This document shows, piece by piece, positions 16,543 through 64,000 of a stretch of 64,000 bases of DNA; within the stretch, counting starts at the first letter, position 1; every line of letters starts with the position of its first letter. Both the position numbers and the translations under genes were made by a program. This DNA is from an uncultured Candidatus Saccharibacteria bacterium (lineage in GTDB: Bacteria > Patescibacteriota > Minisyncoccia > Phycocordibacterales > UBA9973): the NCBI GenBank assembly GCA_964527185.1, contig CAZGOI010000001.1, forward strand, positions 234,410-298,409, read 5' to 3'. The notes beneath the pieces are model-generated. The model was not told the DNA's origin. It did no database searches and saw only the letters and a program-made list of their open reading frames with translations.

Positions 16543-16549
16543 CAAACAG

Positions 16550-16623
16550 CGCGACCGAGCGGACTTGAACCGCCAACCTCTCGCGTGACAGGCGAGTGCT
16601 CTAACCAGTTGAGCTACGATCGC
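16550..16623 (-). tRNA. tRNA-Asp (GTC)
   Basis: Cloverleaf folds by hand: acceptor GCGATCG/CGGTCGC, anticodon loop CTGTCAC, T-loop TTCAAGT. No encoded CCA. Confidence 0.85.
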
Positions 16624-16670
16624 AAAACTATTTAAATCATAACTTCTCAATTTGCCACTATTCTCGCCTA

Positions 16671-16713
16671 GGCGAGTGCTCGCTATATTCCAATTGAGTT
16701 GAGCTACGATCGC
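16671..16713 (-). pseudogene. Degenerate partial copy of the tRNA-Asp 5' half (acceptor 5' strand + D-arm + leader)
   Basis: ggcgagtgctc...agttgagctacgatcgcaaaac matches the 5' half of tRNA-Asp 45 bp upstream, with a scrambled D-loop. Confidence 0.6.
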
Positions 16714-16736
16714 AAAACCTCAAAAAATTGAGGGTG

Positions 16737-16808
16737 TCGGCGGGAAGAATCGAACTTCCGACCTTGGGCTTATGAGTCCCACGCTCTAACCGACTGAGCT
16801 ACGCCGAC
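16737..16808 (-). tRNA. tRNA-Met/Ile2 (CAT), elongator-type
   Basis: Acceptor GTCGGCG/CGCCGAC paired at 1:72. Y11:R24. Anticodon loop CTCATAA. T-loop TTCGATT. Confidence 0.8.
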
Positions 16809-16859
16809 ATGTTCGGCTTTGGGGACATGAGATAAATTGGCATGTCACTTGCCGACTTG

Positions 16860-16930
16860 TTGCGGGGGTTTGAATCGAACAAACATCTTAAGGTTATGAG
16901 CCTTACGAGATACCATTTCTCTACCCCGCT
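16860..16930 (-). tRNA. tRNA-Met (CAT), initiator-like
   Basis: Anticodon loop CTCATAA. 1:72 unpaired (A/A). A11:U24 in the D-stem as in initiators. T-loop TTCGATT. Confidence 0.7.
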
Positions 16931-17059
16931 ATATTCTATTATATAAAAAAGGGCAAATAAGCCCAACCCCCATATTCTACCTAAAATCAGGAATTTTGCA
17001 ATCATTGTTTACAAAATAGGGGAATAATGGTAATTTAGTAAATAATTAAAACAACCTAA

Positions 17060-17326
17060 ATGCAGCTCTCAATAGACAAGGTATCATTCGCGAACGCCAA
17101 AATACGAAGCAGATCAGATCCTGTAAAGATGAAAGTTGTGGTGCGTAAAGAAATAAATGGTGTAATTTACTCCCAATTAGAAGAAGTAGAATTTACCCCC
17201 GAAAATTACTGCACCATAGGTAACATAGATTATTTGTTAGTCGAAGACGAAAATGAAAGCCAAGGCTACATGCACAATTTTTCTTTGGTTAAATCCTCTT
17301 GTGGCTATCGCGAAAAAAATTTCTAA
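17060..17326 (+). CDS. Hypothetical small protein between tRNA clusters
   Basis: 88-aa ORF with no recognisable motifs. Confidence 0.3.
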   Translation: MQLSIDKVSFANAKIRSRSDPVKMKVVVRKEINGVIYSQLEEVEFTPENYCTIGNIDYLLVEDENESQGYMHNFSLVKSSCGYREKNF

Positions 17327-17395
17327 GACTGCTAAGTTTGCCGGCAGTCTTTTTCGTTTGAAAACGAGATTAAATTATAGTAACATCATCCTATT

Positions 17396-17468
17396 GCCGT
17401 TATAGCTCAGGTAGTAGAGCATTTCCATGGTAAGGAAAAGGTCGACAGTGCAAGTCTGTCTAACGGCT
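17396..17468 (+). tRNA. tRNA-Thr (GGT)
   Basis: Acceptor GCCGTTA/TAACGGC. Anticodon stem TTTCC/GGAAA with loop ATGGTAA. Confidence 0.85.
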
Positions 17469-17476
17469 CACTTCCC

Positions 17477-17549
17477 GCCACCCTAGCTCAGTTGGTAGAG
17501 CACGGCTTTCGTAAAGCCGGGGTCCCGAGTTCGATCCTCGGGGGTGGCT
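17477..17549 (+). tRNA. tRNA-Thr (CGT)
   Basis: Acceptor GCCACCC/GGGTGGC. Anticodon stem CGGCT/AGCCG with loop TTCGTAA. T-loop TTCGATC. Confidence 0.85.
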
Positions 17550-17589
17550 CAAGTGTTGATTTTTATTGCCAAAGTGATACCATGAAATC

Positions 17590-25454: not shown

Positions 25455-25525
25455 TGCCGACTCGTCTAATGGTAGGACACATCCCTCTGGAGGATGGTAT
25501 TGGGGTTCGAATCCCTGGTCGGCAG
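25455..25525 (+). tRNA. tRNA-Gln (CTG)
   Basis: Acceptor TGCCGAC/GTCGGCA. Anticodon stem CATCC/GGATG with loop CTCTGGA. T-loop TTCGAAT. Confidence 0.8.
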
Positions 25526-25529
25526 CTCT
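25508..25529 (+). repeat. Direct repeat copy 1 (tRNA-Gln T-arm/3' acceptor, cgaatccctggtcggcagctct)
   Basis: 21/22 identical to 25884-25905. Confidence 0.8.
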
Positions 25530-50589: not shown

Positions 50590-51078
50590 ATGGAAGATAA
50601 ACAGCATAAAAGACCTTCTTGGGATGAGTATTTTTTACAGATGGCAGAAACGATTGGTACTCGTGGTACTTGTGATAGAGGTCGCGCTGGGGCTGTAATA
50701 ACCAAAGACAAGAGAATACTCTCAACTGGATATGTTGGCTCACCAGTTGGCCTCCCTCATTGTGATGAAGTTGGACATGAGATGCATACGGTAAAACATG
50801 AAGATGGTACAGAATCTCGCCATTGTATAAGAACAGCTCATGCCGAAACAAATGCTATCAATAACGCAGCCCGGGTTGGTACCGCTATAGAAGGTGGAAC
50901 TTTGTATTGTAAGATGTTCCCTTGCTATAAGTGCGGTCAGAGCATTATAAACTCTGGGCTTATACGTGTTGTAGCACTAAAAGACTATCATGGAGCACAA
51001 AGAACAAAAGAAATATTTGACCAGGCTAATATAGAGTATAAAGTACTAGGAGAAATGGAAACTTATAAAGATATGTAA
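50590..51078 (+). CDS. dCMP deaminase
   Basis: 162 aa. HAETNAI and PCYKCG zinc motifs. Confidence 0.8.
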   Translation: MEDKQHKRPSWDEYFLQMAETIGTRGTCDRGRAGAVITKDKRILSTGYVGSPVGLPHCDEVGHEMHTVKHEDGTESRHCIRTAHAETNAINNAARVGTAIEGGTLYCKMFPCYKCGQSIINSGLIRVVALKDYHGAQRTKEIFDQANIEYKVLGEMETYKDM

Positions 51079-51083
51079 TATTT

Positions 51084-51413
51084 ATGGTTGATCTAAAAAG
51101 ATTACAAAAAGAGGTGATGCGTAATAAAATAGAGAAAGGGTTTAATACTACTGATGTAGCCCTCGAATTTTGCCGTGCCCATGAAGAGCTTTCTGAAGCA
51201 TTTTCAAAGTTCAGTAAGAATCAAGAAGGTGTCGCTGAAGAATTTGCCGATGTCGCAGTATTTCTACTCGGTATGTGCGAAATCCTTGGTTATGATTTGG
51301 AAGAAGAATTAGTTAAAAAAATAGAAATAAATAAGAAAAGAAAATACAGAAAAGAAAAATCTCCTGATGGAAAAGATATATATATCAGAGTGAAGACAAA
51401 TGAAGATCCATAG
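51084..51413 (+). CDS. MazG-like nucleotide pyrophosphohydrolase (small, YpjD-type)
   Basis: 109 aa. EELSEAF...EEFADVAVFLL all-alpha NTP-PPase signature. Confidence 0.6.
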   Translation: MVDLKRLQKEVMRNKIEKGFNTTDVALEFCRAHEELSEAFSKFSKNQEGVAEEFADVAVFLLGMCEILGYDLEEELVKKIEINKKRKYRKEKSPDGKDIYIRVKTNEDP

Positions 51414-51428
51414 AAAACCCTGTAAGTA

Positions 51429-51941
51429 TTAAGCGGATTTTTTGTATTCTACAAATGAATAGGGAATAGGAGCGTCGAGATGATCATCACGTGAAATTTC
51501 CTGCCAAAGATTTTTATCGATCTCTGGGAATTTTACATCCCCATCAAAATCTTTGTGGACTTCTGTTATATAAAGTTTATTTGCCCTGCCCATTGATTGT
51601 TTATAAATTTCTCCACCACCTATTATAAATACTTCAACTTTATCTTGATTTTCTTCAAATTCTTTACCTTGTTCGAGCGCTGCAAGCCTCAATGCTTCAT
51701 CTAGCGAGTTTACGATTTCTATCCCGTCTTTTTGATATCCCAAATCTCGAGTGATAATAATATTTTTTCTGTTAGGGAGTGGGCGCCCAATACTCTCAAA
51801 AGTTTTTCGACCCATTATGACAGTGTGGCCAGAAGTTTTATCGCGAAAATTTTTCATATCTTCAAGAATATTCCAAAGGAGTTTATTGCTTCCGCCAATA
51901 ACATTATTTTTTGCAACCGCAGCGATGAGGGAGATGATCAT
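51429..51941 (-). CDS. folA: Dihydrofolate reductase
   Basis: Start moved to MIISLIAAV. GRKTFESIG and IIGGGEIY motifs. ATG lies 1 nt after the thyA stop. Confidence 0.8.
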   Translation of the reverse strand: MIISLIAAVAKNNVIGGSNKLLWNILEDMKNFRDKTSGHTVIMGRKTFESIGRPLPNRKNIIITRDLGYQKDGIEIVNSLDEALRLAALEQGKEFEENQDKVEVFIIGGGEIYKQSMGRANKLYITEVHKDFDGDVKFPEIDKNLWQEISRDDHLDAPIPYSFVEYKKSA

Positions 51942-51942
51942 T

Positions 51943-52908
51943 TTAGACTGCAATCGGGGCTTTGATCGCCTCGTGTGGGTTATAGTCGACCAATTCAAAA
52001 TCTTCAAACTTAAATTTAAATATATCTTTTACTTCTGAGTTTATTTTCATTTTTGGTGGTTCTCTAATATCATTTTCTCGTGACATTTGAAGTTTTGCTT
52101 GTTCTAAGTGGTTAAGATAGAGGTGTATATCTGCTCCTGTCCAGACAAATTCTCCAACTTCTAGCCCAGATACTTGAGCTATCATCATGGTTAAGAGAGC
52201 ATACGAAGCAATATTGAATGGAACACCAAGAAAGAAATCAGCACTTCTTTGATACAATTGACAGGAAAGTTTTCCATTAAGTACATGAAACTGAAATAAT
52301 GAATGACAAGGAGGTGGTGCATGATTATGATCATGTATTAGATCATATATTTCTCCAACATTCCATCCACTAACTATTATTCTTCGAGAAGATCGATCAT
52401 TTTTAAGCATATCAATAACGTTTTGGATTTGATCTATTTCTTGACCACTAGGTGTTTCCCATCTCCTCCATTGCTTTCCATAAATGGGGCCAAGTTCTCC
52501 CCATTCTTTTGCAAATTCATCATTTTCTTTTATTTGATTTACAAACCACTCTAGCTTCTCTGTCCACTCTTTTGAATATCTAGATAGTGTTTTAGTTAAA
52601 TTATTTTTTTCAAGATATACTTGAAATGCCCATTCGTTCCAAATCTTCACATCGTTACGAACTAAATATTTTATATTAGTATCTCCAGTTAAAAACCAAA
52701 GAAGTTCGTGAATGATACCTCGGATGAACACTTTTTTTGTAGTGAGAAGGGGAAATCCTTTTGCAAGGTCAAATCTCATTTGATGCCCAAAGACACTTCT
52801 AGTGCCTATGCCAGTACGTTCCTCTCTATCTACTCCATGTTCGTAAATATATTTCATTAAGGATAGATATTCTTTATCTGGGTTGTCATTATACTCATAA
52901 GTTTTCAT
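51943..52908 (-). CDS. thyA: Thymidylate synthase (long ThyA form)
   Basis: 321 aa. Nucleophile [12 protein letters not shown] and folate-binding [14 protein letters not shown]. Confidence 0.85.
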
Positions 52909-53024
52909 GAGACAATTATACCTTTTTTCTTTTTCATATCAACGCACGTACTATTAATAAAAAATAGCTCTATTTGACATATATATTTATATATTGTATA
53001 TTAGAGGAAATAAAAATATAAGCC

Positions 53025-53732
53025 ATGTATATAGAAAGTGCATACACCATAAGTGCTGCACAGGATGCAGGGCTTATGAAAAAATTTACAGAAACTATGA
53101 ATTTTTTGGTAAAACAAGGAATTATCGAGAATTTCAAAATTGACAGTGACAGTTTGGGCCAAGATCGCCAAGTGTGGTTTGATTTTCCATATGACGACAA
53201 AACACTACAAATGTCTTTCTTTGTAGCTAATAACTTGGAAGAAATTTCGAAAAAAGACGCGATTAATGGTAGTATGCTAATTCTTACCACCGATTTGTCT
53301 TGCGATGACATAAAGTCATTCGTTGATAATTCAAAGCAAAAAAGAATTAAAGGCTATGAGGTTGAAAAAAGAGCCCTTCAAATAATCATCGAAGAAAAAA
53401 GAAACGACTTCAGTATTGAAAGCGTTTCCCATGCAAGTGAGTATGAAGACAAGGTGCTGAAGATCGATCTTGTAGTCAAAGTAAACTACTATACTTTTGA
53501 CCGGTTGAATCAAAAGATGACCCTCAATGTTCCGATTCAATTAAAGTCATCTGCAAAAGGGCAAATGATTCACAAAAAGCAACACCCAGATATTCCGAGC
53601 ATAGTTTTTTATGAAAAAATGACAGTCGAGAATTTTATAAGGCTTGTGAAAAAAATAATTCAAAATTATAAAATCTTTTTTCACAAGAAAAATATCGACC
53701 CGTCTGCCAAACCGGAAGGTTTGCATATATAG
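53025..53732 (+). CDS. Hypothetical protein (divergent from thyA)
   Basis: 235 aa. No recognisable motif and no TM segments. Confidence 0.35.
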   Translation: MYIESAYTISAAQDAGLMKKFTETMNFLVKQGIIENFKIDSDSLGQDRQVWFDFPYDDKTLQMSFFVANNLEEISKKDAINGSMLILTTDLSCDDIKSFVDNSKQKRIKGYEVEKRALQIIIEEKRNDFSIESVSHASEYEDKVLKIDLVVKVNYYTFDRLNQKMTLNVPIQLKSSAKGQMIHKKQHPDIPSIVFYEKMTVENFIRLVKKIIQNYKIFFHKKNIDPSAKPEGLHI

Positions 53733-53804
53733 ATAAGACCATTCGCTTGCGGGTGGTCTTTTTGATATAATCTCTGTGTTAAAACTAGCTAATAGAATAA
53801 AAAG

Positions 53805-54983
53805 ATGAACGACAAACAAGTAGAGAAATTAATAAAAGCTGAAGAAAAAAGGCAAAAAAGCGTAGTCAATCTCATCGCCTCTGAAAATTATGTTTCAGAC
53901 GATATCCTCAAAGCCCTTGGCTCGAAACTGACAAATAAATACGCCGAGGGCTACCCCGGCAGACGATACTATGGCGGCAATGAAGTCATCGACAAGGTCG
54001 AAAACCTTTGCATCGCCCGGGCGCTCAAACTTTTTAAATTAAATAAAAATGATTGGCATGTGAATGTCCAGCTCCTATCTGGTTCGCCAGCCAATTTTGC
54101 CTTATATTCTGCGCTCGTGCCAGTCGGCGGCAAAATCATGGGTATGAAGCTGACCTCTGGCGGGCACCTAACTCACGGCCACCCGCTTTCGATGACCGGT
54201 AAACTTTGGAAGCCGATTCAATTTGAAGTCGACCCAAAAACAGAAGTCATCGATTACAAAGCGCTCGAAGCTGTAGCCATGGTCGAGCGACCAGATATCA
54301 TCGTCGCCGGGTTCACCGCCTATCCGCGAGTTGTCGATTTTAAAAAGTTTCGCTCGATTGCCGATAAATGCGGCGCCCTGCTTCATGTAGATATGTCGCA
54401 CTTTGCTGGACTCGTGGCAGGTTTGGCCTACCCATCGCCATTTCCATATGCCGATTCGGTCATGACAACGACGCACAAATCTCTCCGCGGCCCGAGGCAG
54501 GCAATGCTCTTTGTAAAAAAAGATGAAAGAGGTTTTGATAAAAAATTAGACAAAATGGTCATCCCTGGGCTCTTCGGTGGCCCGCACGAAAACAATATCG
54601 CGGCTGTGGCTATTGCCCTAAAAGAGGCCGAGACGCCGGCTTTCAAAAAATATGCAAGCCAAGTGGTCAAAAATGCACAAGCCCTGGCTGGTGAGTTAGC
54701 CAAGCTCGGCTGGCACGTTGTCTCGGGTGGTACAGATTCGCATTTGATACTCCTAGACACGTTTATGGGGGGCAAAGGGGTCTCTGGCGCTGAAGCTAGC
54801 AAAGCCCTCGAGAAGGCCAAAATAATAGTAAATATGAACACAATTCCGGGCGATACTCGTTCGGTTATGGACCCGTCTGGCATTCGCCTTGGAACATGCG
54901 CCGAGACAACGCTCGGTAAAAAAGAAAAAGATATGATCAAAATCGCCAGAAAGATTGATAAAGTTTTAAGAAAGAAAAAATAA
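53805..54983 (+). CDS. glyA: Serine hydroxymethyltransferase
   Basis: 392 aa. PLP-Lys motif TTHKSLRGPRQA. Confidence 0.9.
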   Translation: MNDKQVEKLIKAEEKRQKSVVNLIASENYVSDDILKALGSKLTNKYAEGYPGRRYYGGNEVIDKVENLCIARALKLFKLNKNDWHVNVQLLSGSPANFALYSALVPVGGKIMGMKLTSGGHLTHGHPLSMTGKLWKPIQFEVDPKTEVIDYKALEAVAMVERPDIIVAGFTAYPRVVDFKKFRSIADKCGALLHVDMSHFAGLVAGLAYPSPFPYADSVMTTTHKSLRGPRQAMLFVKKDERGFDKKLDKMVIPGLFGGPHENNIAAVAIALKEAETPAFKKYASQVVKNAQALAGELAKLGWHVVSGGTDSHLILLDTFMGGKGVSGAEASKALEKAKIIVNMNTIPGDTRSVMDPSGIRLGTCAETTLGKKEKDMIKIARKIDKVLRKKK

Positions 54984-54984
54984 A

Positions 54985-55446
54985 ATGCCACACATTCACG
55001 AAAAAATTGATTTTACAGTAGAAGTTTTTGTTGTTTACAAAAATAAACTTCTGCTTCGTATGCACGATAAACATCATATTTGGTGCTCGGTTGGTGGCCA
55101 TATTGAACTCGACGAAGACCCGGTTCAAGCTGCTATACGTGAAGTAAAAGAAGAAGTTGGGCTCGATATAAAATTAGCTGGAGATGTTTTCGCTACTAAT
55201 GATGAACACTACATGAATATACTTCCCCCGAGGTATTTGGGCAAGAATTTTGTAAACGAGAAGCATACCCATATAGCGATGGTCTATTTTGCTACTTCTG
55301 ATACAGACAAATTGAAAGATGCGCATAGTGAACACGAAAAGGCAGAAACAAAATGGGTAACAATAGAAGAATTAAATAAAATGGATTTAGTTCCAAATAT
55401 AAAATTTTACGCCGAGGAAGCCTTAAAGGAACTCGGCCAAAAATAA
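54985..55446 (+). CDS. Nudix hydrolase
   Basis: 153 aa. GGHIELDEDPVQAAIREVKEEVGL. Confidence 0.7.
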   Translation: MPHIHEKIDFTVEVFVVYKNKLLLRMHDKHHIWCSVGGHIELDEDPVQAAIREVKEEVGLDIKLAGDVFATNDEHYMNILPPRYLGKNFVNEKHTHIAMVYFATSDTDKLKDAHSEHEKAETKWVTIEELNKMDLVPNIKFYAEEALKELGQK

Positions 55447-55447
55447 A

Positions 55448-55828
55448 ATGGAAAGCTCAAATATAGATAAAAATCGTGAAGACATGAATGTAAAATATAT
55501 TGAAACCGAAAATCAGTTTTGGTTATGGATTCAAGATATTAGAAATGAATTTTCAGCCTTCTATCTTGTAATAGATGTATATGATCTTAAAAAACTTTTA
55601 GAATTTCGCGATAAAATGCAATTTCTCACTCATAAAGAGATTTTACAAAAAGATGGAAAAACTTTATCTCAAGAAATATTAGAAAATAAAAATACAAAAA
55701 GACTAATAAACACATTTGATGATTTAGTTTCTCGGATTAAAGTTTTCAAAACCAAGAAAGAACTTAAACAGATTTTAGAGGAAAATAATGAATTTTTTGC
55801 TGAATTTAAACTAGGCTTAAAACAATAA
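55448..55828 (+). CDS. Hypothetical protein between two Nudix genes
   Basis: 126-aa ORF with tight gene coupling on both sides. Confidence 0.3.
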   Translation: MESSNIDKNREDMNVKYIETENQFWLWIQDIRNEFSAFYLVIDVYDLKKLLEFRDKMQFLTHKEILQKDGKTLSQEILENKNTKRLINTFDDLVSRIKVFKTKKELKQILEENNEFFAEFKLGLKQ

Positions 55829-55829
55829 T

Positions 55830-56249
55830 ATGGAAAACCAAATAAAAATAGGCGTCGGTGTAATGATATGGAAGGACGGCAAAGTCCTAATGGGCAGGCG
55901 CAAGGGTTCGCACGGGGCAGGCGAATATGCATTTCCCGGCGGCCATCTTGAATATATGGAATCTTTTGAAGATTGTGCTAGACGTGAGGTACGAGAGGAA
56001 GCGGGAATAGAAATAAAAAATATCAGATTCAATTGTTTTACGAATGTAACTTCACATAAACCCAAGCACTATGTGCACATTGGTTTAGTTGCAGATTGGG
56101 CAGCTGGTGAACCAGAAGTTCGTGAACCCGATAAACTTGAAAATTGGGATTGGTATTTGCTCGAAAATTTACCAACTCCTATTTTCGATTTTTGCCTTTT
56201 TGGATTTGATGCATACAAAACTGGTAAAAACTTTTATGATAAAAAATAA
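55830..56249 (+). CDS. Nudix hydrolase (MutT-like)
   Basis: 139 aa. GGHLEYMESFEDCARREVREEAGI. Confidence 0.7.
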   Translation: MENQIKIGVGVMIWKDGKVLMGRRKGSHGAGEYAFPGGHLEYMESFEDCARREVREEAGIEIKNIRFNCFTNVTSHKPKHYVHIGLVADWAAGEPEVREPDKLENWDWYLLENLPTPIFDFCLFGFDAYKTGKNFYDKK

Positions 56250-56273
56250 AAACCATGTGCGTTATTAAAAATA

Positions 56274-56804
56274 TCACAACATGGTTTTTTCATAAGTTAA
56301 ATAGGCAATCGAAGAGAACATTATCATTTCGAGAAATACTCCTTCAATCAGATTTTGGTTATCGTTGTATCTTTCGATGATTTTCTTCAACCTCTCAACC
56401 TTATTTGTGAGTTGTCGAGAAATGTCTACGATTTTTAGTTTGAAAATCTCTTCTACATAGTGGTCGTTTTGTGTGACAAGATAGCAATTGAAACCAAAAA
56501 CGACTTCCCAATACATTTTTTGAAAATCCACAGATTGTTTGTTTGAATTCTTTATTATTCCAATCACAGAGTGATTTATTATCTCCAAGAATTCATAACC
56601 AAAATCCTCGATCGCACTCGTACTTTTTAATCCAGCATCTAGTATTCCATCTATCTTAAGAATTTTTTTATGTATCTGGTCTGATACATAGATTAAAGCA
56701 CTCGTTTTTAAGATCAATTCATATTTAGCGATTTTTCTGTCGAAGTATTTTTTTGAAATTTTAAGGGTACGACAGACACCCTCTTTTGAAAGTTTGTCTA
56801 TCAT
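56274..56804 (-). CDS. Putative TetR-like regulator
   Basis: 176 aa. N-terminal HTH-like LSKEGVCRTLKISKKYFDRK. Confidence 0.3.
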   Translation of the reverse strand: MIDKLSKEGVCRTLKISKKYFDRKIAKYELILKTSALIYVSDQIHKKILKIDGILDAGLKSTSAIEDFGYEFLEIINHSVIGIIKNSNKQSVDFQKMYWEVVFGFNCYLVTQNDHYVEEIFKLKIVDISRQLTNKVERLKKIIERYNDNQNLIEGVFLEMIMFSSIAYLTYEKTML

Positions 56805-56900
56805 AGCTTTATATTTTGTCGATATATTAGCATATTGGGTTATAAAGTAAACCGGGTTTTGGATATTGTGACCTCCTCATATATAATAGCCTTGTTATAT

Positions 56901-57596
56901 ATGAAAAATAAAAAAGGTAAACTCATAGTCATAGACGGTACTGATGGCTCTGGCAAGGCGACCCAGGTTGCACTCCTCACAAAGCGACTTCGCCGCGAAG
57001 GCTACAAGGTTAAAAACGTCGATTTCCCCGAGTACTACAAAAACTTTTTTGGTAAGTTTATCGGCCACTGCCTGTCAGAGCGGTATTACGACTTTGTCAA
57101 AGTCCACCCAAAGATTGCTTCTGTGCTATACGCTGCTGACCGATTTGAATCAAAGGGTGATATCGAGGAATGGCTGGGAGCGGGCTACATGGTCATCGCC
57201 AATCGTTACGTCAGCGCCAACCAAATTCACCAAGGCGGAAAAATAAAAAATACAAAAAAGCGAGAAGATTTCATCAAATGGCTCGATGAGATGGAATACA
57301 AAGTTTTTAAAATCCCAAAGCCAGACGTCGTGCTCTACCTCAGCCTGCCATTGCCGATGGTTTTAAAGCTAATCAAAGAGCGCAATAGCAATATGAAGCG
57401 CGCCTATTTGAAAAAACACAAAGACGTTCACGAGAGCGACAAAGATTTCCTCCTCAACTCCCGCAAGAGTGCCCTCTGGCTTTCCAAGACCCAGAAGTAT
57501 TATAAGAAGATAGATTGCGCCAAGGCCGGCAAAATCCGCAGCAGAGAAGATATCCACCACGAAATTTATAAGAAAGTTAAAAAGTTAATAGGTTGA
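56901..57596 (+). CDS. tmk: Thymidylate kinase
   Basis: Start moved to MKNKKGK. P-loop IVIDGTDGSGKAT, DRF/DRY motif (ADRFES). Confidence 0.8.
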   Translation: MKNKKGKLIVIDGTDGSGKATQVALLTKRLRREGYKVKNVDFPEYYKNFFGKFIGHCLSERYYDFVKVHPKIASVLYAADRFESKGDIEEWLGAGYMVIANRYVSANQIHQGGKIKNTKKREDFIKWLDEMEYKVFKIPKPDVVLYLSLPLPMVLKLIKERNSNMKRAYLKKHKDVHESDKDFLLNSRKSALWLSKTQKYYKKIDCAKAGKIRSREDIHHEIYKKVKKLIG

Positions 57597-57610
57597 TACC
57601 GCCCTACTAA

Positions 57611-57637
57611 AAAAGCCACCCCACAGGTGGCTTTAAA
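57611..57637. terminator. Bidirectional hairpin terminator
   Basis: aaaagccacccc-a-caggtggcttt. Confidence 0.6.
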
Positions 57638-57647
57638 ATTAATTGAG

Positions 57648-58163
57648 CTAATTGTTTTGAAGTATAAGAAATGCGTAGTTTATGACCTCGTACAGTCTGT
57701 CGGGTACATATCTGATACCGCCTGAATTCCTCAAAGAATTTTTTGCCTCGAGAATAGTTCCATTTATCATCTCGATTAAAACATAAGATGGAATTTTGGC
57801 AGATGGCTGGTCATCAGAATTTGGTCTCCTCATAGGATACCTTTTCGCTAATTCCAGATAAAAATCATAAAGTGCTATGGCCTTTTCGTTGTTTAAACTC
57901 AAAAGGTCTTTTTGTGTTATCGAAAGCCTTATGACTGTAACGAGAGAATTATTTATCACATCCATCAATAATTTTTGTACTTCTTCAATTTCTCCAATCT
58001 TGTTTTCAAGTCCACCATTCATTTTTTTTAACACAGTCACATTTTCATGGATTTTATCAATCAACGCAGCAATTCTCATTTCTTTTTTCCAACTGCTCAA
58101 TGAAGTTGGACCATTTTTTACAAAATAGGCCCTTACTTTCTCTGAAATTTGATTTTCGTTCAT
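57648..58163 (-). CDS. Hypothetical protein
   Basis: 171-aa ORF with no recognisable motif. Confidence 0.3.
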   Translation of the reverse strand: MNENQISEKVRAYFVKNGPTSLSSWKKEMRIAALIDKIHENVTVLKKMNGGLENKIGEIEEVQKLLMDVINNSLVTVIRLSITQKDLLSLNNEKAIALYDFYLELAKRYPMRRPNSDDQPSAKIPSYVLIEMINGTILEAKNSLRNSGGIRYVPDRLYEVINYAFLILQNN

Positions 58164-58203
58164 TTCTTTAATTTTCTTTTTGTTTTAGGCTATAATACAA
58201 ATT

Positions 58204-58626
58204 ATGAAAATCAAAGTCAAACGCCTGAAAGATTCTGCCAAACTGCCGACCTACCAACACCCCGGCGATGTCGGCATGGATCTCTACGCAATCGAAGGCG
58301 CGACCATCCCTCCACTCGGCCATGCGCGCATATGGCACGGCTTTGCGCTCGAGTTTCCCGAGGGCTATGCCGCAATTGTCAAAGATAAATCGAGCATCTC
58401 AAAAGCGCTTCTGCACACCATGGGCGGGGTTTTCGATGCGGGGTATCGTGGCGAATACAACACGCATTTGGTAAATTTAGGAAACGAGCCATACACCGTC
58501 GAAGAGGGCGACAAAGTTTCGCAGCTCGTTATCTACCCAATTGCTATTGCAGAGCTCGAAGAAGTCGAGGCGCTCGGCGATTCAGCTCGAGGGCAAGATA
58601 GCTTTGGAAGCACAGGAAGAAAATGA
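58204..58626 (+). CDS. dut: dUTP diphosphatase (trimeric dUTPase)
   Basis: 140 aa. Motifs VGMDLYA, GVFDAGYRGE, RGQDSFGSTG. Leaderless-looking start after TATAAT. Confidence 0.85.
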   Translation: MKIKVKRLKDSAKLPTYQHPGDVGMDLYAIEGATIPPLGHARIWHGFALEFPEGYAAIVKDKSSISKALLHTMGGVFDAGYRGEYNTHLVNLGNEPYTVEEGDKVSQLVIYPIAIAELEEVEALGDSARGQDSFGSTGRK

Positions 58627-60326
58627 TAAAAGAGAAAATTATAAATTCAATAAAAGGGGCTTTCAAAAATCTTGGGATAGAAACCAAAGATATTGTTCTC
58701 GAACATCCAACAGATTTTAAAAACGGGGACTATTCTACAAATGCGACCCTAATCTATGCCAAAGAGCTTAATGCAAACCCAAAAGATTTGGCAGAAAAAA
58801 TAAAATCGACCCTTCAAAATGCTCAGGGTGAATTTCCTTTTATCAAGGAAATTCAAGTTGCCGGCCCAGGGTTTATCAATTTTTATTTGTCTCAAGATTT
58901 TTTTACCAATTCTATAAAACAAATTTTAGACCAAAAAGAAAATTGGGGTAAAAATGAAATGCTAAAAGGTAAAAAAGTCATGGTCGAGTACACCCAGCCA
59001 AATCCCTTTAAACCATTTCACATCGGCCACCTCATGAGTAACGCCATCGGCGAATCTATTTCTCGCATTGTTGAATTTTCTGGTGCTAAAACAATTCGTG
59101 CCAACTATCAGGGTGACGTTGGTCCGCATGTCGCAAAAGCTATTTGGGGCATAATTAATTCAGGCCTTGACTATAAAGAAAAAGATGCACTTTGGATAGG
59201 GGAAATGTATGCCAAAGGGAGCGATGCCTATGACAATAACATAGAAGCCAAGGAGGAAATAGACGAAATCAATAGAAAAATTTACGACCATAGTAACCAA
59301 GAGATAAACGAGATCTATAGCTGGGGTCGGCAAGTCACCCTCGATGCTTTTGAAGAGATTTACAAAACTCTCGGCACAAAATTCAACTACTATTTTTTTG
59401 AAAGTGAAATGGCCCCGATCGGCGAGAAAATAGTAAAAGAAAATCTAGGCAATATCTTCAGCGAATCTGAAGGGGCGATTGTTTTTCATGCCGAGAACTA
59501 TGACCCCAAGCTCCATACCAGAGTTTTCATAAACTCAAAAGGCCTTCCCACATACGAAACAAAAGAACTTGGCTTGACTATGACCAAATTTGAAAAAGAA
59601 AATCCAGATCTCTCCATTATCACTACCGCTATTGAACAGGGCGAGTATATGAAAGTTGTTCAAAAAGCTGTTTCGCTTATCCACCCCGATTATGAATCTC
59701 GCATGAGGCACGTGACCCACGGCATGATGCGCCTCTCTACTGGCAAGATGGCTTCGAGGAAGGGCAACGTCATCACCGGCGAATCTATAATCAATGATTC
59801 GATAGATATGGTGCGCCAAAAAATGAGCCAGCGAGATTACAGCGACCAAGAGAAAAATGATATTTCAAAAAAGGTCGGAATCGCGGCGCTCAAATATTCG
59901 ATACTTAGATCATCGATCGGCGGAGATATAGTTTACGATTTTGAAAAATCAATATCGTTTGAAGGCGATTCGGGCCCGTATCTGCAATACACAGCCGTGC
60001 GAGCAAATTCTATTTTAGAAAAAGCCAAAAAAGAAAATATAGATATGGATATAGACAATAGACCCGAGGAAATTACAAATCTCGAGCGGCTCGTCTACCA
60101 ATTCAAAGAAGTGGTCGAGCGTTCATATGAAGAGCTTGAACCGCACCACCTCGCCACCTATCTGATAGAGCTTGCGAGCGCCTTCAATTCTTTTTATGCG
60201 ACTACTGTGGTAGTTGATAAAAGTGATAAAAATTCACCTTACCGCATTGCTTTAACCAAAGCATTTTTTCAAACGATGAAAAACGGCCTCTGGCTCCTCG
60301 GTATCGAAACCCCAGAGAAAATGTAA
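58623..60326 (+). CDS. argS: Arginine--tRNA ligase
   Basis: 567 aa. HIGH (PFHIGHLMS), class-I core and DALR anticodon-binding domain. Confidence 0.9.
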   Translation: MIKEKIINSIKGAFKNLGIETKDIVLEHPTDFKNGDYSTNATLIYAKELNANPKDLAEKIKSTLQNAQGEFPFIKEIQVAGPGFINFYLSQDFFTNSIKQILDQKENWGKNEMLKGKKVMVEYTQPNPFKPFHIGHLMSNAIGESISRIVEFSGAKTIRANYQGDVGPHVAKAIWGIINSGLDYKEKDALWIGEMYAKGSDAYDNNIEAKEEIDEINRKIYDHSNQEINEIYSWGRQVTLDAFEEIYKTLGTKFNYYFFESEMAPIGEKIVKENLGNIFSESEGAIVFHAENYDPKLHTRVFINSKGLPTYETKELGLTMTKFEKENPDLSIITTAIEQGEYMKVVQKAVSLIHPDYESRMRHVTHGMMRLSTGKMASRKGNVITGESIINDSIDMVRQKMSQRDYSDQEKNDISKKVGIAALKYSILRSSIGGDIVYDFEKSISFEGDSGPYLQYTAVRANSILEKAKKENIDMDIDNRPEEITNLERLVYQFKEVVERSYEELEPHHLATYLIELASAFNSFYATTVVVDKSDKNSPYRIALTKAFFQTMKNGLWLLGIETPEKM

Positions 60327-60558: not shown

Positions 60559-63500
60559 ATGCAAGAAGACGAAAAAAATAACAAGTCCGAAAATGCTCTA
60601 CGCGAGGAAGCAGTTTTGAAGTTTTGGGATCAAAATCAAATTTTCAAAAAAACTCTAGACAAAAAATCTCCAAAGGGCGAGTTCATTTTCTACGAAGGCC
60701 CACCGACGGCCAATGGCAAACCAGGCATTCACCACCTCGAGGCCAGAGCTTTTAAAGATGCAATTCCACGCTACAAAACAATGCGGGGCTATCACGTCTA
60801 TAGAAAGGGCGGTTGGGATACCCATGGTCTGCCAGTCGAATTGCAAGTCGAAAAAGAGCTGGGCCTCAATTCAAAAAAAGCAATTGAAGAATACGGCATC
60901 GCCAAATTCAACCAAGAATGTAAAAAAAATGTCTGGAAGTATTTAGAATATTGGAACGATTTTACCAAGCGTATTGGTTACTGGGTTGACCAAGACAACC
61001 CGTATGTGACCTACCACAATAGTTACATAGAATCTGTTTGGAATATTTTAAAAAAAGTTAACGAAGAAAATCTTTTATACAAAGATTACAAAGTTGTCCC
61101 GTGGTGCCCGCGCTGTGGCACGGCGCTATCTTCGCATGAACTCGCGCAGGGGTATGAAAATGTCAAAGACCTTTCTGTAACAGCGAAATTTAAAGTTAAA
61201 GGGCAAGACAACACCTATCTTTTGGCCTGGACGACGACTCCGTGGACCCTGCCCGACAATGTTGCGCTTGCAGTCGGCAAAGATATTGAATATGTCAAAA
61301 TAAAAACAAAAGGTGAAATTTTAATTCTTGCAAAAAACCGACTCATAATACTTGGTGATAATAGTTATGAAATACTTCAGACGCTAAAAGGCAGTGAGCT
61401 CGTTGACCTTGTGTATGAACCTCTTTATCAATACCTTGTACAAAATATTTCTGATACTGAAAAACCAAAACTTGAAAAAGCTTACAGAGTTTATCCAGCT
61501 AACTTTGTTACGACCGAAGATGGTACAGGTATTGTTCACACTGCGGTTATGTATGGTCAAGATGATTTTATTCTTGGCACCCAAATCGGTCTACCAAAAT
61601 TCCACCTCGTTAATCCAGATGGTAAATTTTTACAGAATACAGATTTTCTGTCTGGTCGTTTTGTCAAAGACGAGGAAGTGGCAGTCGATATCATCAAAGA
61701 CCTTGCCTCGCGTGGTTTGCTTTTTCATAAAGAAAAATATGAACACTCGTATCCATTTTGTTGGCGTTGCAAGACTCCGCTCATCTACTACGCTCGCGAT
61801 TCTTGGTATATCAGAATGTCGAGCCTGAGAGAAAAACTCATAAAAGAAAATCAAACTATAAATTGGGAACCAGAACATACTCGCGATGGGCGTTTTGGCG
61901 AATGGCTTTCTGAAGTAAAAGATTGGGCCCTTTCCCGCGAGAGGTATTGGGGCACACCACTGCCGGCTTGGAATTGCAAATCTTGCAACAAACTCTGTGT
62001 AATCGGAAGTATCAGCGAATTGCAATCAAAAACAAAAAAATCTGGCAACACATATTTCATCATGCGGCACGGCGAGACGACGCACAATGTTAAAAATCTG
62101 GTCAGCGTCACATTAAATAGTGGTAGCCATCTGACAGAAAAAGGTAAAGAAGAAACTATAAAATCGGCCAAGAGTTTAAAAGGCAAGGGAATAGATTTGA
62201 TCATAACTTCGCCATTTAATCGCACACAAGAAACTTCAAAAATTGTCGCCGACACTATCAGCCTTGATCATAAAGACATAATACTCGACGATCGCTTGCA
62301 CGAAATCTCTGTGCCGATGTACGAAGGTCGGGCTTGGGCCGAATACCATAGGGATTTCCCAAAGACAGTCGAGAACTGGGGCAAGGCGCCCGAAGGCAAC
62401 GAATCATATGAAGGCATGAAAAGACGATCGATGAATTTCTTGTTTGAACTTGAAGAGAAATATAAAAATAAAAAAATCCTGATAGTCACCCACGGCGGGC
62501 CATCGTGGCTCATGATCGCTGGCGCCAGGATGCTCGACACCGAGAAAACCCTGGCTCTCATTCGCGACAATAAAGATTTTCATTATCTCAAAAATTCTGA
62601 AATTCAAGATCTGCCATTTGTTTCATTCCCTCACGATAAAAATTATGACCTAGACCTGCACCGCCCGTATATAGACGAGGTTTCGCTTGCCTGCGACTGT
62701 GGTGGCGACCAAGAGAGAACAAAAGAAGTCATCGACGTCTGGTTCGACTCTGGGGCAATGCCTTTTGCAGAGTACCACTATCCGTTTGAAAATAAAAAAT
62801 GGATCGAAGGCAAAGGTTACCCAGCTGATTTTATTTCAGAAGCCATAGACCAAACCCGTGGCTGGTTCTACACCCTTCATGCCATAGGTATTTTGATGGA
62901 TCGCGGTAAGGCATTTAAAAATGTTATTTGCCTTGGCCACCTGCTCGATAAAGATGGCAAAAAAATGTCTAAATCGCTCGGCAATATTGTCGACCCATGG
63001 GAGATGATAGATAAATATGGTGTCGATAGTCTAAGGCTTTGGATGTATTCTGTAAACCAACCTGGTGAATCAAAAAACTTTGACGAAAAAACGATTTCTG
63101 AACTTCACGGCAAAGTTTTTAACCTGCTCTACAATGTCCTAGCCTTCTACGAACTCTATCGAAATAAAGAAGAAGAGAAAGAAAAATATAAAGAATCTAA
63201 AAATATTTTAGACAGATGGATTGTCGCTCGGTTAAATACCCTGATAGAATTTTCGACTTCTCAGTTAGATGAATATAAACTGCTTAACCCAGTGCGTGAA
63301 ATGCAAAAATTCATCGACGACCTCTCGACTTGGTACCTCAGGCGTTCTCGAGATAGGTTAAAAAATGGCGACAAAGACGCAAAGAAAACTTTGTATTTTA
63401 TTCTTAGAAATCTAACTCAAATAATGGCGCCACTTGCTCCATTTTCGACCGAAGATATTTGGCAGAAGTTAAAATTAAGTGACGACACAGAGAGCGTGCA

Positions 63501-64000
63501 TCTATCAAGCTGGCCAGAGTTTTCAAAGCTTGGGAAAAAAGAAAATAAATTGCTCGCCGATATGGAAGTAACCCGGGAAATATGTCGAGTTGCAAATTCT
63601 CTTCGCCAAAAGGCCAATATTCCTGTCCGCCAACCACTGTCTTTGCTTAAAATCAAAAAATCTGATCTAGGCGAAGAATATTTAGAAATCATAAAAGACG
63701 AGATCAATGTCAAAGAAATCAAAATAGATAGCTCTATGCAAATCGAAGTAAACCTCGAGACCCACATCAGCCTAGAACTGCGCGGGGAGGGGCAATATCG
63801 TGAACTCGTGCGGGCAATTCAAGATATGCGCAAAGAAAAGGGCCTAAACCCGAGCGATGTCATAACACTCGAAGTCAAGACGGGCACAGAAGGCCAGGAA
63901 CTCATAAATAAATTCAAAGATGAACTCGCAAAAACCATAAATGCTAAAGAAATCAAAATATGCGACACGTCTGGCACAGATATAAAAATAGGGGACATCG
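60559..64000 (+). CDS. ileS: Isoleucine--tRNA ligase (partial, runs off window), with in-frame histidine-phosphatase-like domain insertion
   Basis: Translated by hand in frame 1: MQEDEKNN...PTANGKPGIHH, KMSKS at ~62953. No stop to the window end. Absent from the ORF track because it is open-ended. Confidence 0.88.
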   Translation, partial: MQEDEKNNKSENALREEAVLKFWDQNQIFKKTLDKKSPKGEFIFYEGPPTANGKPGIHHLEARAFKDAIPRYKTMRGYHVYRKGGWDTHGLPVELQVEKELGLNSKKAIEEYGIAKFNQECKKNVWKYLEYWNDFTKRIGYWVDQDNPYVTYHNSYIESVWNILKKVNEENLLYKDYKVVPWCPRCGTALSSHELAQGYENVKDLSVTAKFKVKGQDNTYLLAWTTTPWTLPDNVALAVGKDIEYVKIKTKGEILILAKNRLIILGDNSYEILQTLKGSELVDLVYEPLYQYLVQNISDTEKPKLEKAYRVYPANFVTTEDGTGIVHTAVMYGQDDFILGTQIGLPKFHLVNPDGKFLQNTDFLSGRFVKDEEVAVDIIKDLASRGLLFHKEKYEHSYPFCWRCKTPLIYYARDSWYIRMSSLREKLIKENQTINWEPEHTRDGRFGEWLSEVKDWALSRERYWGTPLPAWNCKSCNKLCVIGSISELQSKTKKSGNTYFIMRHGETTHNVKNLVSVTLNSGSHLTEKGKEETIKSAKSLKGKGIDLIITSPFNRTQETSKIVADTISLDHKDIILDDRLHEISVPMYEGRAWAEYHRDFPKTVENWGKAPEGNESYEGMKRRSMNFLFELEEKYKNKKILIVTHGGPSWLMIAGARMLDTEKTLALIRDNKDFHYLKNSEIQDLPFVSFPHDKNYDLDLHRPYIDEVSLACDCGGDQERTKEVIDVWFDSGAMPFAEYHYPFENKKWIEGKGYPADFISEAIDQTRGWFYTLHAIGILMDRGKAFKNVICLGHLLDKDGKKMSKSLGNIVDPWEMIDKYGVDSLRLWMYSVNQPGESKNFDEKTISELHGKVFNLLYNVLAFYELYRNKEEEKEKYKESKNILDRWIVARLNTLIEFSTSQLDEYKLLNPVREMQKFIDDLSTWYLRRSRDRLKNGDKDAKKTLYFILRNLTQIMAPLAPFSTEDIWQKLKLSDDTESVHLSSWPEFSKLGKKENKLLADMEVTREICRVANSLRQKANIPVRQPLSLLKIKKSDLGEEYLEIIKDEINVKEIKIDSSMQIEVNLETHISLELRGEGQYRELVRAIQDMRKEKGLNPSDVITLEVKTGTEGQELINKFKDELAKTINAKEIKICDTSGTDIKIGDI

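Follow-up and report, generated by a model that had tools for sequence, protein, structure and literature searches.

What is a complete phosphatase doing in the middle of an aminoacyl-tRNA synthetase? The question is raised by the gene ileS, which lies at the end of a 64,000-nucleotide stretch of DNA (hereafter the window) from an uncultured Candidatus Saccharibacteria bacterium (contig CAZGOI010000001.1, positions 234,410 to 298,409), and whose product is a type-2 isoleucyl-tRNA synthetase (IleRS) interrupted in frame by a domain of the histidine-phosphatase superfamily. Aminoacyl-tRNA synthetases are among the best-studied enzymes and, to our knowledge, catalytic additions within the core of a bacterial synthetase, the editing domain aside, are almost unknown. 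We consider it practically certain that the locus encodes an intact IleRS with a whole phosphatase of about 190 amino acids looped out of the zinc knuckle of its connective peptide 2 (CP2), in an argS-ileS context and with a free-standing homologue in other genomes. A functional link between this phosphatase and tRNA charging in Patescibacteria appears well supported by the comparative evidence presented below.

The host enzyme was identified from several independent signals. The frame opened by the ATG at 60559 is free of stops up to the end of the window, and its product is 100 % identical to a database protein of 1154 aa (P0121), so that seven codons remain past the window end. The product reaches 896 bits with the TIGR00392 model (cut-off 621), which makes it an IleRS, and Pfam recovers tRNA-synt_1 in two stretches, together with Anticodon_1 and DUF5915. 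The editing motifs of connective peptide 1 (CP1), i.e. AWTTTPWT and GTGIVH, are found, and the best match in the PDB is the IleRS2 of Priestia megaterium (PmIleRS2, 844 bits). The synthetase motifs had been described as intact in the initial annotation; this is true of the KMSKS loop and not of the class I signature, as the canonical HxGH motif is absent from the window IleRS, which reads GIHH instead. Since the G/AXHH variant is documented as natural and functional in IleRS2 (PMC10485003), this reading is no argument against membership of the family.

The G/AXHH motif is tied to mupirocin hyper-resistance in IleRS2, with a Ki in the millimolar range (Brkic et al. 2023, PMC10485003), and the natural GIHH motif of the host enzyme predicts intrinsic high-level resistance to this antibiotic. 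GXHH was also read in most of the close homologues checked and in three aligned IleRS of the operon type described below, which carry no insert; in distant insert-bearing IleRS the signature motif is HYGH, HMGH, HFGH, HHGH or HPGH. The window protein does not belong to the acquired mupirocin-resistance IleRS, with 795 bits for MupA (NF000257) and 786 bits for MupB (NF000258) against a cut-off of 1900. Neither a leader RNA nor a riboswitch was found upstream of ileS with Rfam.

The limits of the insert were set by alignment with PmIleRS2: query residues 7-491 match 5-477 of the chain, and query residues 696-1124 match 484-919, so that about 204 residues stand where PmIleRS2 has a loop of 6 residues. 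These limits (Table 1) lie within a few codons of the interval 62044-62640 proposed initially. The insert is located between the cysteine pairs C473/C476 and C712/C714, the zinc ligands being kept (all four are nearly invariant in 52 homologues), which agrees with the placement at the zinc knuckle first suggested; we take the region to be CP2, leaning on the PmIleRS2 domain borders and on general knowledge of the fold. As the catalytic core of PmIleRS2 comprises residues 40-168 and 513-632 (PMC10485003), the insertion loop falls in the connective-peptide region between the two core halves.

Table 1. Features of the ileS locus, with positions in the window and residue numbers in the ileS product
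Feature	Residues	Position in the window	Strand	Evidence
argS (arginyl-tRNA synthetase), directly upstream of ileS		58623..60326	+	open reading frame
ileS, type-2 isoleucyl-tRNA synthetase		60559..63999, continuing beyond the window	+	open frame; TIGR00392, 896 bits; identity to P0121
Class I signature motif GIHH, replacing HxGH	aa 56-59	60724..60735	+	sequence PPTANGKPGIHH
IleRS motif ahead of the insert, quoted in the initial annotation	aa 471-484	61969-62010	+	sequence
CP2 zinc knuckle, first half, C473-x-x-C476 (CKSC)	C473, C476	61975..61986	+	sequence
Inserted histidine-phosphatase domain with linkers	aa 492-695	62032..62643	+	PF00300; limits from alignment with PmIleRS2 (8c8w)
Pfam His_Phos_1 core	aa 500-671	62056-62571	+	PF00300
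RHGETTHN	aa 503-510	62065-62088	+	sequence
R503-H504-G505; H504, predicted phosphoryl-accepting nucleophile	R503, H504, G505	62065..62073	+	Arg and His in 237/237 embedded copies
ITSPFNRTQET	aa 549-559	62203-62235	+	sequence
R555, second phosphate-binding Arg (SPFNRTQET)	R555	62221..62223	+	237/237 embedded copies
E582, predicted general acid (RLHEIS)	E582	62302..62304	+	Glu in 231/237, Asp in 6/237
LIVTHGGP	aa 641-648	62479-62502	+	sequence
H645, second catalytic His (IVTHGG)	H645	62491..62493	+	237/237 embedded copies
DLDLHRPYIDE	aa 697-707	62647-62679	+	sequence
CP2 zinc knuckle, second half, C712-D-C714	C712, C714	62692..62700	+	LACDCGG in sequence
LACDCGG	aa 710-716		+	sequence
DVWFDSG	aa 726-732		+	sequence
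KMSKS loop of IleRS	aa 802-806	62962..62976	+	sequence; invariant in homologue alignment

The only Pfam match within the insert is PF00300, with 113.4 bits (cut-off 21.7) and E=1.4e-32 over positions 2-173 of the 194 in the profile, and the insert taken alone gives E=5.4e-34. The profile search, the uninterrupted frame and the TIGR00392 score together confirm that a phosphatase has entered IleRS in frame, with neither stop nor frameshift. The four hallmark motifs reported initially were recovered in the same order and at the same places, and the insert has the whole catalytic set of branch 1 of the superfamily, i.e. R503/H504/G505, R555, E582 and H645. In this family, the His of the RHG motif attacks a phosphomonoester held by two Arg and the second His, a Glu protonates the leaving group, and water then hydrolyses the phospho-histidine. 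By analogy, H504 would attack a phosphomonoester bound by R503, R555 and H645, and E582 would protonate the leaving group. Both modules keep all residues needed for catalysis, and the protein is predicted to be bifunctional. On chemical grounds, Ile-AMP, one of the substrates first put forward, is an improbable target for such a phosphomonoesterase.

Conservation is lowest in the insert, where identity to the window sequence is 53 %, compared with 73 % and 63 % in the two flanking parts. Despite this divergence the catalytic Arg, His, Arg and His are fixed in 237/237 synthetase-embedded copies, and R555 is also invariant in the homologue alignments. This invariance bears directly on the idea that the domain is a pseudo-enzyme, i.e. 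a catalytically dead structural or tRNA-binding appendage, which we consider highly improbable even if some lineages have shortened inserts that lack about 35 residues of the cap. Such inserts were seen in P0021, P0033 and P0296, in which the missing residues correspond to profile positions ~101-136 and both catalytic His are kept; they may represent a reduced or re-specialised form.

Structure prediction gave a consistent picture. In the AlphaFold model of the full-length protein, the insert is the best-predicted region, with a predicted local distance difference test (pLDDT) of 85-94, and modelled alone it reaches a pLDDT of 87.6 and a predicted template modelling score (pTM) of 0.88, in line with an independent domain. 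Foldseek matched this model with probability 1.00, TM 0.65-0.75 and 21-25 % identity to PhoE, PspA, GpgP and CobC, and its matches also include a riboflavin-pathway phosphatase. The models specific to individual families were tried and rejected in turn: a true phosphoglycerate mutase (dPGM) scores 27.7 against 81.7 with TIGR01258 and 74-75 against 225 with NF038349, CobC 81 against 163 (TIGR03162), PspA 60 against 350, SixA 40 against 74.5 and GpmB 55 against 261. The highest-scoring NCBIfam model, NF005567 (bifunctional RNase H/acid phosphatase), stops at 83 bits for a cut-off of 326. Because all these specific models remain far under their cut-offs, the insert is best described, as far as fold and profiles indicate, as an independent and generic short histidine phosphatase of the PhoE/PspA/CobC-like kind and not as a mutase; the label "PGAM-like" used at first (after phosphoglycerate mutase) therefore stands at the level of the superfamily and fails as an enzyme assignment. 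An intein or other mobile insert was likewise rejected, as there is no Hint or homing-endonuclease domain, PF00300 is the only domain present, and free-standing phosphatases can be aligned with the insert over its whole length. No Pfam match to pyrophosphatases (PF00719, DHH/DHHA2) was found in the window protein.

To define how widely the architecture occurs, two collections were used. The first comprised the 120 best full-length matches to the whole protein (62-71 % identity, 1131-1270 aa): 120/120 have PF00300 together with the IleRS domains, with the phosphatase at the same site, and in 120/120 the distance from WGxP to HRPY is 229-244 aa. The second was a scan of GTDB, with one genome per species and an alignment of 12 insert sequences as query, in which at least 537 stretches of species-representative genomes encode a relative. 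The best 80 loci among these stretches were kept, and all 80/80 belong to Patescibacteria, spanning Paceibacterota, Nomura-, Yonath-, Taylor-, Adler-, Kaiser-, Zambryski-, Wolfe- and Vogelbacteria and including RAAC4_OD1_1 (693-kb contig, locus L004). A single stop-to-stop frame of 1109-1367 aa runs across the insert in all loci that are not cut by a contig end, with the exception of four (L003, L058, L063 and L071), in which ileS is broken by a frameshift or a stop away from the insert junctions. These breaks could be sequencing errors, pseudogenes or truly split genes. Many database IleRS entries begin at an internal Met that matches window aa 420.

These data leave very little room for an artefact, whether from chimeric assembly or from a sequencing error that merged ileS with a separate phosphatase gene. 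The 4/80 related loci with broken frames are what could be cited for it, and their breaks sit away from the junctions; moreover, the same junctions recur in hundreds of assemblies made independently in many studies, no GC step marks the junctions in the window, and either half of IleRS alone would be non-functional. We regard the artefact as a negligible prospect: judging from these sequences, the insert is real and under selection.

A separate search with the insert alone, exhaustive and profile-free, returned 9000 representative proteins at E<=1e-3 and 790 at E<=1e-10, and for the top 150 matches we determined which part of the window protein they cover, i.e. the N-terminal part, the insert or the C-terminal part. 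Most of these 150 are IleRS with the insert at the identical site, and about 30-40 are free-standing proteins of ~190-200 aa that align end to end with it. The genomic context was looked up for six members of the free-standing family, each ~55-65 % identical to the query P0283. In 6/6 loci, the phosphatase gene lies directly upstream of an ileS devoid of insert (946-978 aa; fragmented by frameshifts in L088), with gaps of 1-137 nt over the six loci and of 4-41 nt in 4/6, and in 5/6 loci argS just precedes the phosphatase gene. The three insert-less IleRS that were aligned keep the zinc knuckle and have a short loop at the insertion point. Among the insert-bearing loci with enough upstream flank, argS lies upstream on the same strand in most, and no second phosphatase gene was found in the flanks of insert-bearing loci. 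The window follows this arrangement, with argS, a 232-nt spacer without gene, and then ileS.

From the gene order, argS-(phosphatase)-ileS is a conserved neighbourhood in which the phosphatase is paired with IleRS either as a neighbouring gene or within one polypeptide. A partner that is a neighbour in one lineage and fused in another is the strongest evidence here that phosphatase and IleRS would work together. The two forms differ in charge: the free-standing proteins are very basic (median isoelectric point 10.2, net charge +25 in ~192 aa) and more so than the neighbouring ArgRS, IleRS and RecO, whereas the embedded domains are mildly acidic, resembling their hosts. The free-standing family (loci L081-L089) also has Asp for Glu at the proton-donor site and Gln for Asn after the RHG motif. 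A neighbor-joining tree of 84 phosphatase domains was star-like, its only clear grouping being that of an ArgRS-fused copy with the operon-type free-standing proteins.

This ArgRS (P0350), in which the phosphatase is fused directly after the C-terminal Met, is one of several further fusions and is easily explained by operon read-through; in locus L089, the argS and phosphatase genes are 1 nt apart. Within IleRS, at least three different insertion sites are used, i.e. the zinc knuckle, the position after the WF(D/E)SG strand and a loop near window aa ~873, and four IleRS (P0373, P0335, P0355 and P0368) have two His_Phos domains. P0354 was grouped with the double-domain IleRS showing second or alternative sites. 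A ValRS (P0259) has four His_Phos stretches, a YrdC/Sua5 TC-AMP synthase (P0292) has the phosphatase at its C-terminus and an ATP sulfurylase (P0362) at its N-terminus. Other domains are found beside it: IleRS P0322 combines His_Phos with an ElaA-like GNAT and, inside the CP1 region, with an IS200-like Y1 transposase domain. IleRS P0372 combines His_Phos with a P-loop kinase-like domain that falls slightly short of the Pfam cut-offs; its matches, to shikimate kinase, APS kinase and Pnkp, are only marginal (E >= 0.02). The identities of these GNAT and P-loop co-inserts favour no functional model over another. A local scan for a Nudix box found none in the collected homologues.

The phosphatase could also be a housekeeping enzyme acting on small molecules (sugar phosphates, phosphoserine or cofactor phosphates) without any link to aminoacylation, i.e. 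a former operon neighbour captured into tolerant surface loops and kept because phosphatase activity, and not the pairing, is needed. Its nearest relatives in sequence and fold (PhoE, PspA, GpgP, CobC and the riboflavin-pathway phosphatase) fit this explanation, as does the fact that IleRS loops of the Candidate Phyla Radiation (CPR) also accept unrelated domains (GNAT, P-loop kinase-like, IS200-like transposase), and fusion of neighbouring genes is common in reduced genomes. However, the association recurs too often for chance: adjacency to ileS is kept across proteins only 55-65 % identical, and the three or more IleRS insertion sites come in addition to separate fusions to ValRS, ArgRS and YrdC. 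We hold this explanation to be unlikely.

The reading that we favour, as a tentative one, is that the phosphatase looped out of Patescibacteria IleRS acts in cis on the acceptor end of the bound tRNA; taken as a whole, substrate included, this statement is possible rather than probable. The domain would free the acceptor end of a 2'/3'-terminal phosphate or pyrophosphate, such phosphates would stem from damage by ribonucleases or toxins, and their removal would restore a chargeable CCA-OH end. The phosphatase would in this way be an "end-healing" counterpart to the CP1 editing domain. A wider version, which we find rather doubtful, holds that the class I synthetases of Patescibacteria (IleRS, ValRS and ArgRS) have a dedicated tRNA-end-repairing phosphatase, as operon partner or as insert, that would work in cis before charging; its possible targets would be a phosphate at the 2'/3' position, a cyclic phosphate after opening or a pyrophosphate added by a toxin.

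Several considerations lead us to prefer the tRNA end as substrate. Tethering truly helps only when the substrate is a macromolecule already bound by the host, and IleRS, ValRS and ArgRS all bind tRNA as substrate; binding of both tRNA and double-stranded RNA is also reported for YrdC. The sites of insertion fall within the catalytic domain or adjacent to it, and not at the termini. The free proteins are extremely basic, as expected if they bind RNA or another polyanion on their own. Lastly, NF005567, the best NCBIfam model though far below its cut-off, describes another fusion to a nucleic-acid enzyme.

Other points weigh against the tRNA end. We know of no superfamily member that acts on RNA ends, and its closest relatives of solved structure all have small molecules as substrates. 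Fusion to ATP sulfurylase bears no relation to tRNA, and in the ArgRS fusion the phosphatase is C-terminal, where a long distance to the acceptor end is expected. In the full-length model (pTM 0.45), the Rossmann-fold segments are poorly predicted, which limits its use for judging inter-domain geometry such as the distance from H504 to A76 of the tRNA. The charge contrast between free and embedded forms could also reflect an acidic protein partner or a proteome bias of the whole lineage. Finally, none of the models considered here explains two or four copies in one synthetase.

The list of fusion partners itself suggests the main competing explanation, namely that the phosphatase clears a product or by-product shared by adenylate-forming reactions, hydrolysing pyrophosphate (PPi) or AMP, thereby pulling the forward reaction and recycling nucleotides. 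All partners found (IleRS, ValRS, ArgRS, YrdC/Sua5 and ATP sulfurylase) cleave ATP between the alpha and beta phosphates and release PPi; ATP sulfurylase depends on PPi removal, and algal fusions of sulfurylase and pyrophosphatase exist. The P-loop kinase-like domain of one IleRS could be an adenylate kinase. On the other hand, no His_Phos_1 enzyme is known to us as a pyrophosphatase, a freely diffusing small molecule offers no kinetic gain from fusion, and neither PPi nor AMP calls for so basic a free-standing form. No ppa-like sequence was found in the window and 0.9 Mb of related loci, i.e. only ~12 kb per genome, by tblastn with an approximate E. coli Ppa and by a PROSITE-pattern scan, a coverage too small to inform on whole genomes. 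The SR1 enzyme, which is compared with the window IleRS below, has a Nudix pyrophosphohydrolase (PMC3812714), which would suit such a clearance role. Yet RAAC4_OD1_1, which bears the insert, is reported to have a membrane pyrophosphatase (PMC3812714), so the insert is not simply a substitute for an absent PPase; an H+-PPase was also reported in another Parcubacterium. Overall, clearance of PPi or AMP seems to us unlikely, while being the explanation to which the tRNA-end proposal must chiefly be compared.

The position of the insert, ~100 residues ahead of KMSKS and in the same domain, would also suit a protein phosphatase or regulatory module, which would dephosphorylate the synthetase (e.g. 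its KMSKS loop after the action of a HipA-type kinase toxin) or sense a phosphorylated metabolite. The superfamily does include protein phosphatases (SixA, PGAM5 and Sts-1), and targets of HipA-family toxins include class I synthetases, which they phosphorylate close to the ATP site. No kinase partner was found in the neighbourhoods of the six free-standing loci, the SixA model scores under its cut-off, and the YrdC and sulfurylase fusions are left unexplained, so that we judge a regulatory role very unlikely.

Whatever its exact substrate, a phosphatase tied to IleRS over a large radiation, and separately to ValRS, ArgRS and YrdC, argues for an unrecognised step of phosphate removal linked to tRNA charging in minimal-genome organisms. 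If the tRNA end is the substrate, this would be a new kind of translation quality control, and its repair would amount to a second, chemically different "proofreading" by a synthetase, directed at the tRNA instead of the amino acid. If PPi or AMP is the substrate, the fusion would show how ultra-small cells arrange their nucleotide economy around translation. The enzyme is open to expression and assay by standard methods.

Some other features of the window were recorded. Upstream of argS, at 50590-58626, lies a dense cluster of genes for nucleotide and thymidylate metabolism which, assigned by eye from the translations, comprises a dCMP-deaminase-like gene, a MazG-like gene, DHFR, ThyA, GlyA, two Nudix genes, thymidylate kinase and dUTPase. 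The stop of the last, dut, overlaps the start of argS by 4 nt, and its region (58150-58600) has a GC content of 0.49-0.54 against 0.35-0.44 in the surrounding genes, which may indicate a foreign origin. Five tRNA genes are present at 16549-17550 (Asp-GTC, two with anticodon CAT, Thr-GGT and Thr-CGT), and a tRNA-Gln-CTG at 25455-25526; one of the tRNAs with a CAT anticodon could be a lysidine-dependent tRNA-Ile.

How does this enzyme compare with known systems? Among solved synthetases, PmIleRS2 (PDB 8c8u/8c8v/8c8w) is the closest, sharing the type-2 C-terminal organisation and the CP2 zinc knuckle, and differs by its 6-residue loop in place of the 204-residue phosphatase domain; with the IleRS2 bearing G/AXHH (PMC10485003), the window enzyme shares a natural GXHH motif. 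PhoE (1h2e), PspA (4ij5), Rv2419c (glucosyl-3-phosphoglycerate phosphatase, 4pz9/6s2q) and CobC (6nru) resemble the insert in fold, size and the Arg-His-Arg-Glu-His set, but they are free-standing enzymes acting on small metabolites, at 21-25 % identity and with NCBIfam models that the insert does not reach. The Rv2228c/RnhC type (NF005567) also joins His_Phos_1 to a nucleic-acid enzyme, through an end-to-end fusion to RNase H and not an insertion. A precedent for an extra enzymatic domain in a bacterial IleRS is given by NF040702 (IleRS with an N-acetyltransferase domain); with this model the window protein reaches 309 (cut-off 1999), and it has no GNAT domain, unlike the relative P0322, which has both His_Phos and GNAT. 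As functional analogues, the E. coli CCA-adding enzyme has an HD-domain phosphatase, and the T4 and bacterial Pnkp are end-healing enzymes. Like the insert, as we propose it, these would set a phosphatase that cleans 2'/3'-phosphorylated ends on a tRNA-handling enzyme, but their folds (HD, HAD, metallophosphoesterase) are unrelated, and action of the insert on RNA is a proposal.

The nearest precedent is the IleRS of SR1, which Kantor et al. 2013 (PMC3812714) described as interrupted by a Nudix domain in addition to two phosphoglycerate-mutase domains. In both enzymes, a CPR IleRS is broken in frame by a domain of the PGAM/His_Phos superfamily; the window IleRS has one PF00300 stretch and no Nudix domain (no PF00293), and comes from another CPR lineage (Parcubacteria/Paceibacteria-type). 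The double-insert IleRS P0373, P0335 and P0355 resemble the published description, and the double-domain IleRS probably match the SR1-type enzyme of 2013. That account consists of a single sentence, without site mapping, conservation analysis or function (PMC3812714), and in the literature that we searched it alone links a PGAM domain to a synthetase. Full-text searches returned no paper joining IleRS with a histidine phosphatase or IleRS with Patescibacteria, nothing relevant was retrieved on synthetase insertions in the CPR or on His_Phos_1 with a tRNA synthetase, and neither Brkic et al. 2023 (PMC10485003) nor a 2026 preprint on IleRS phylogeny mentions phosphatase inserts or CPR. Public databases already contain the architecture for hundreds of Patescibacteria, some of them with genomes published in 2013-2015, so that the claim, made in the initial annotation, of a phosphatase-carrying synthetase never before described has to be withdrawn. 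This kind of object is already known, if barely, and the window adds a single-insert member from a different CPR lineage. What is new is its lineage-wide spread, its invariant active site and the argS-phosphatase-ileS operon of insert-less lineages, together with the multiple insertion sites, the multiple synthetase partners and the contrast in charge between free and embedded forms.

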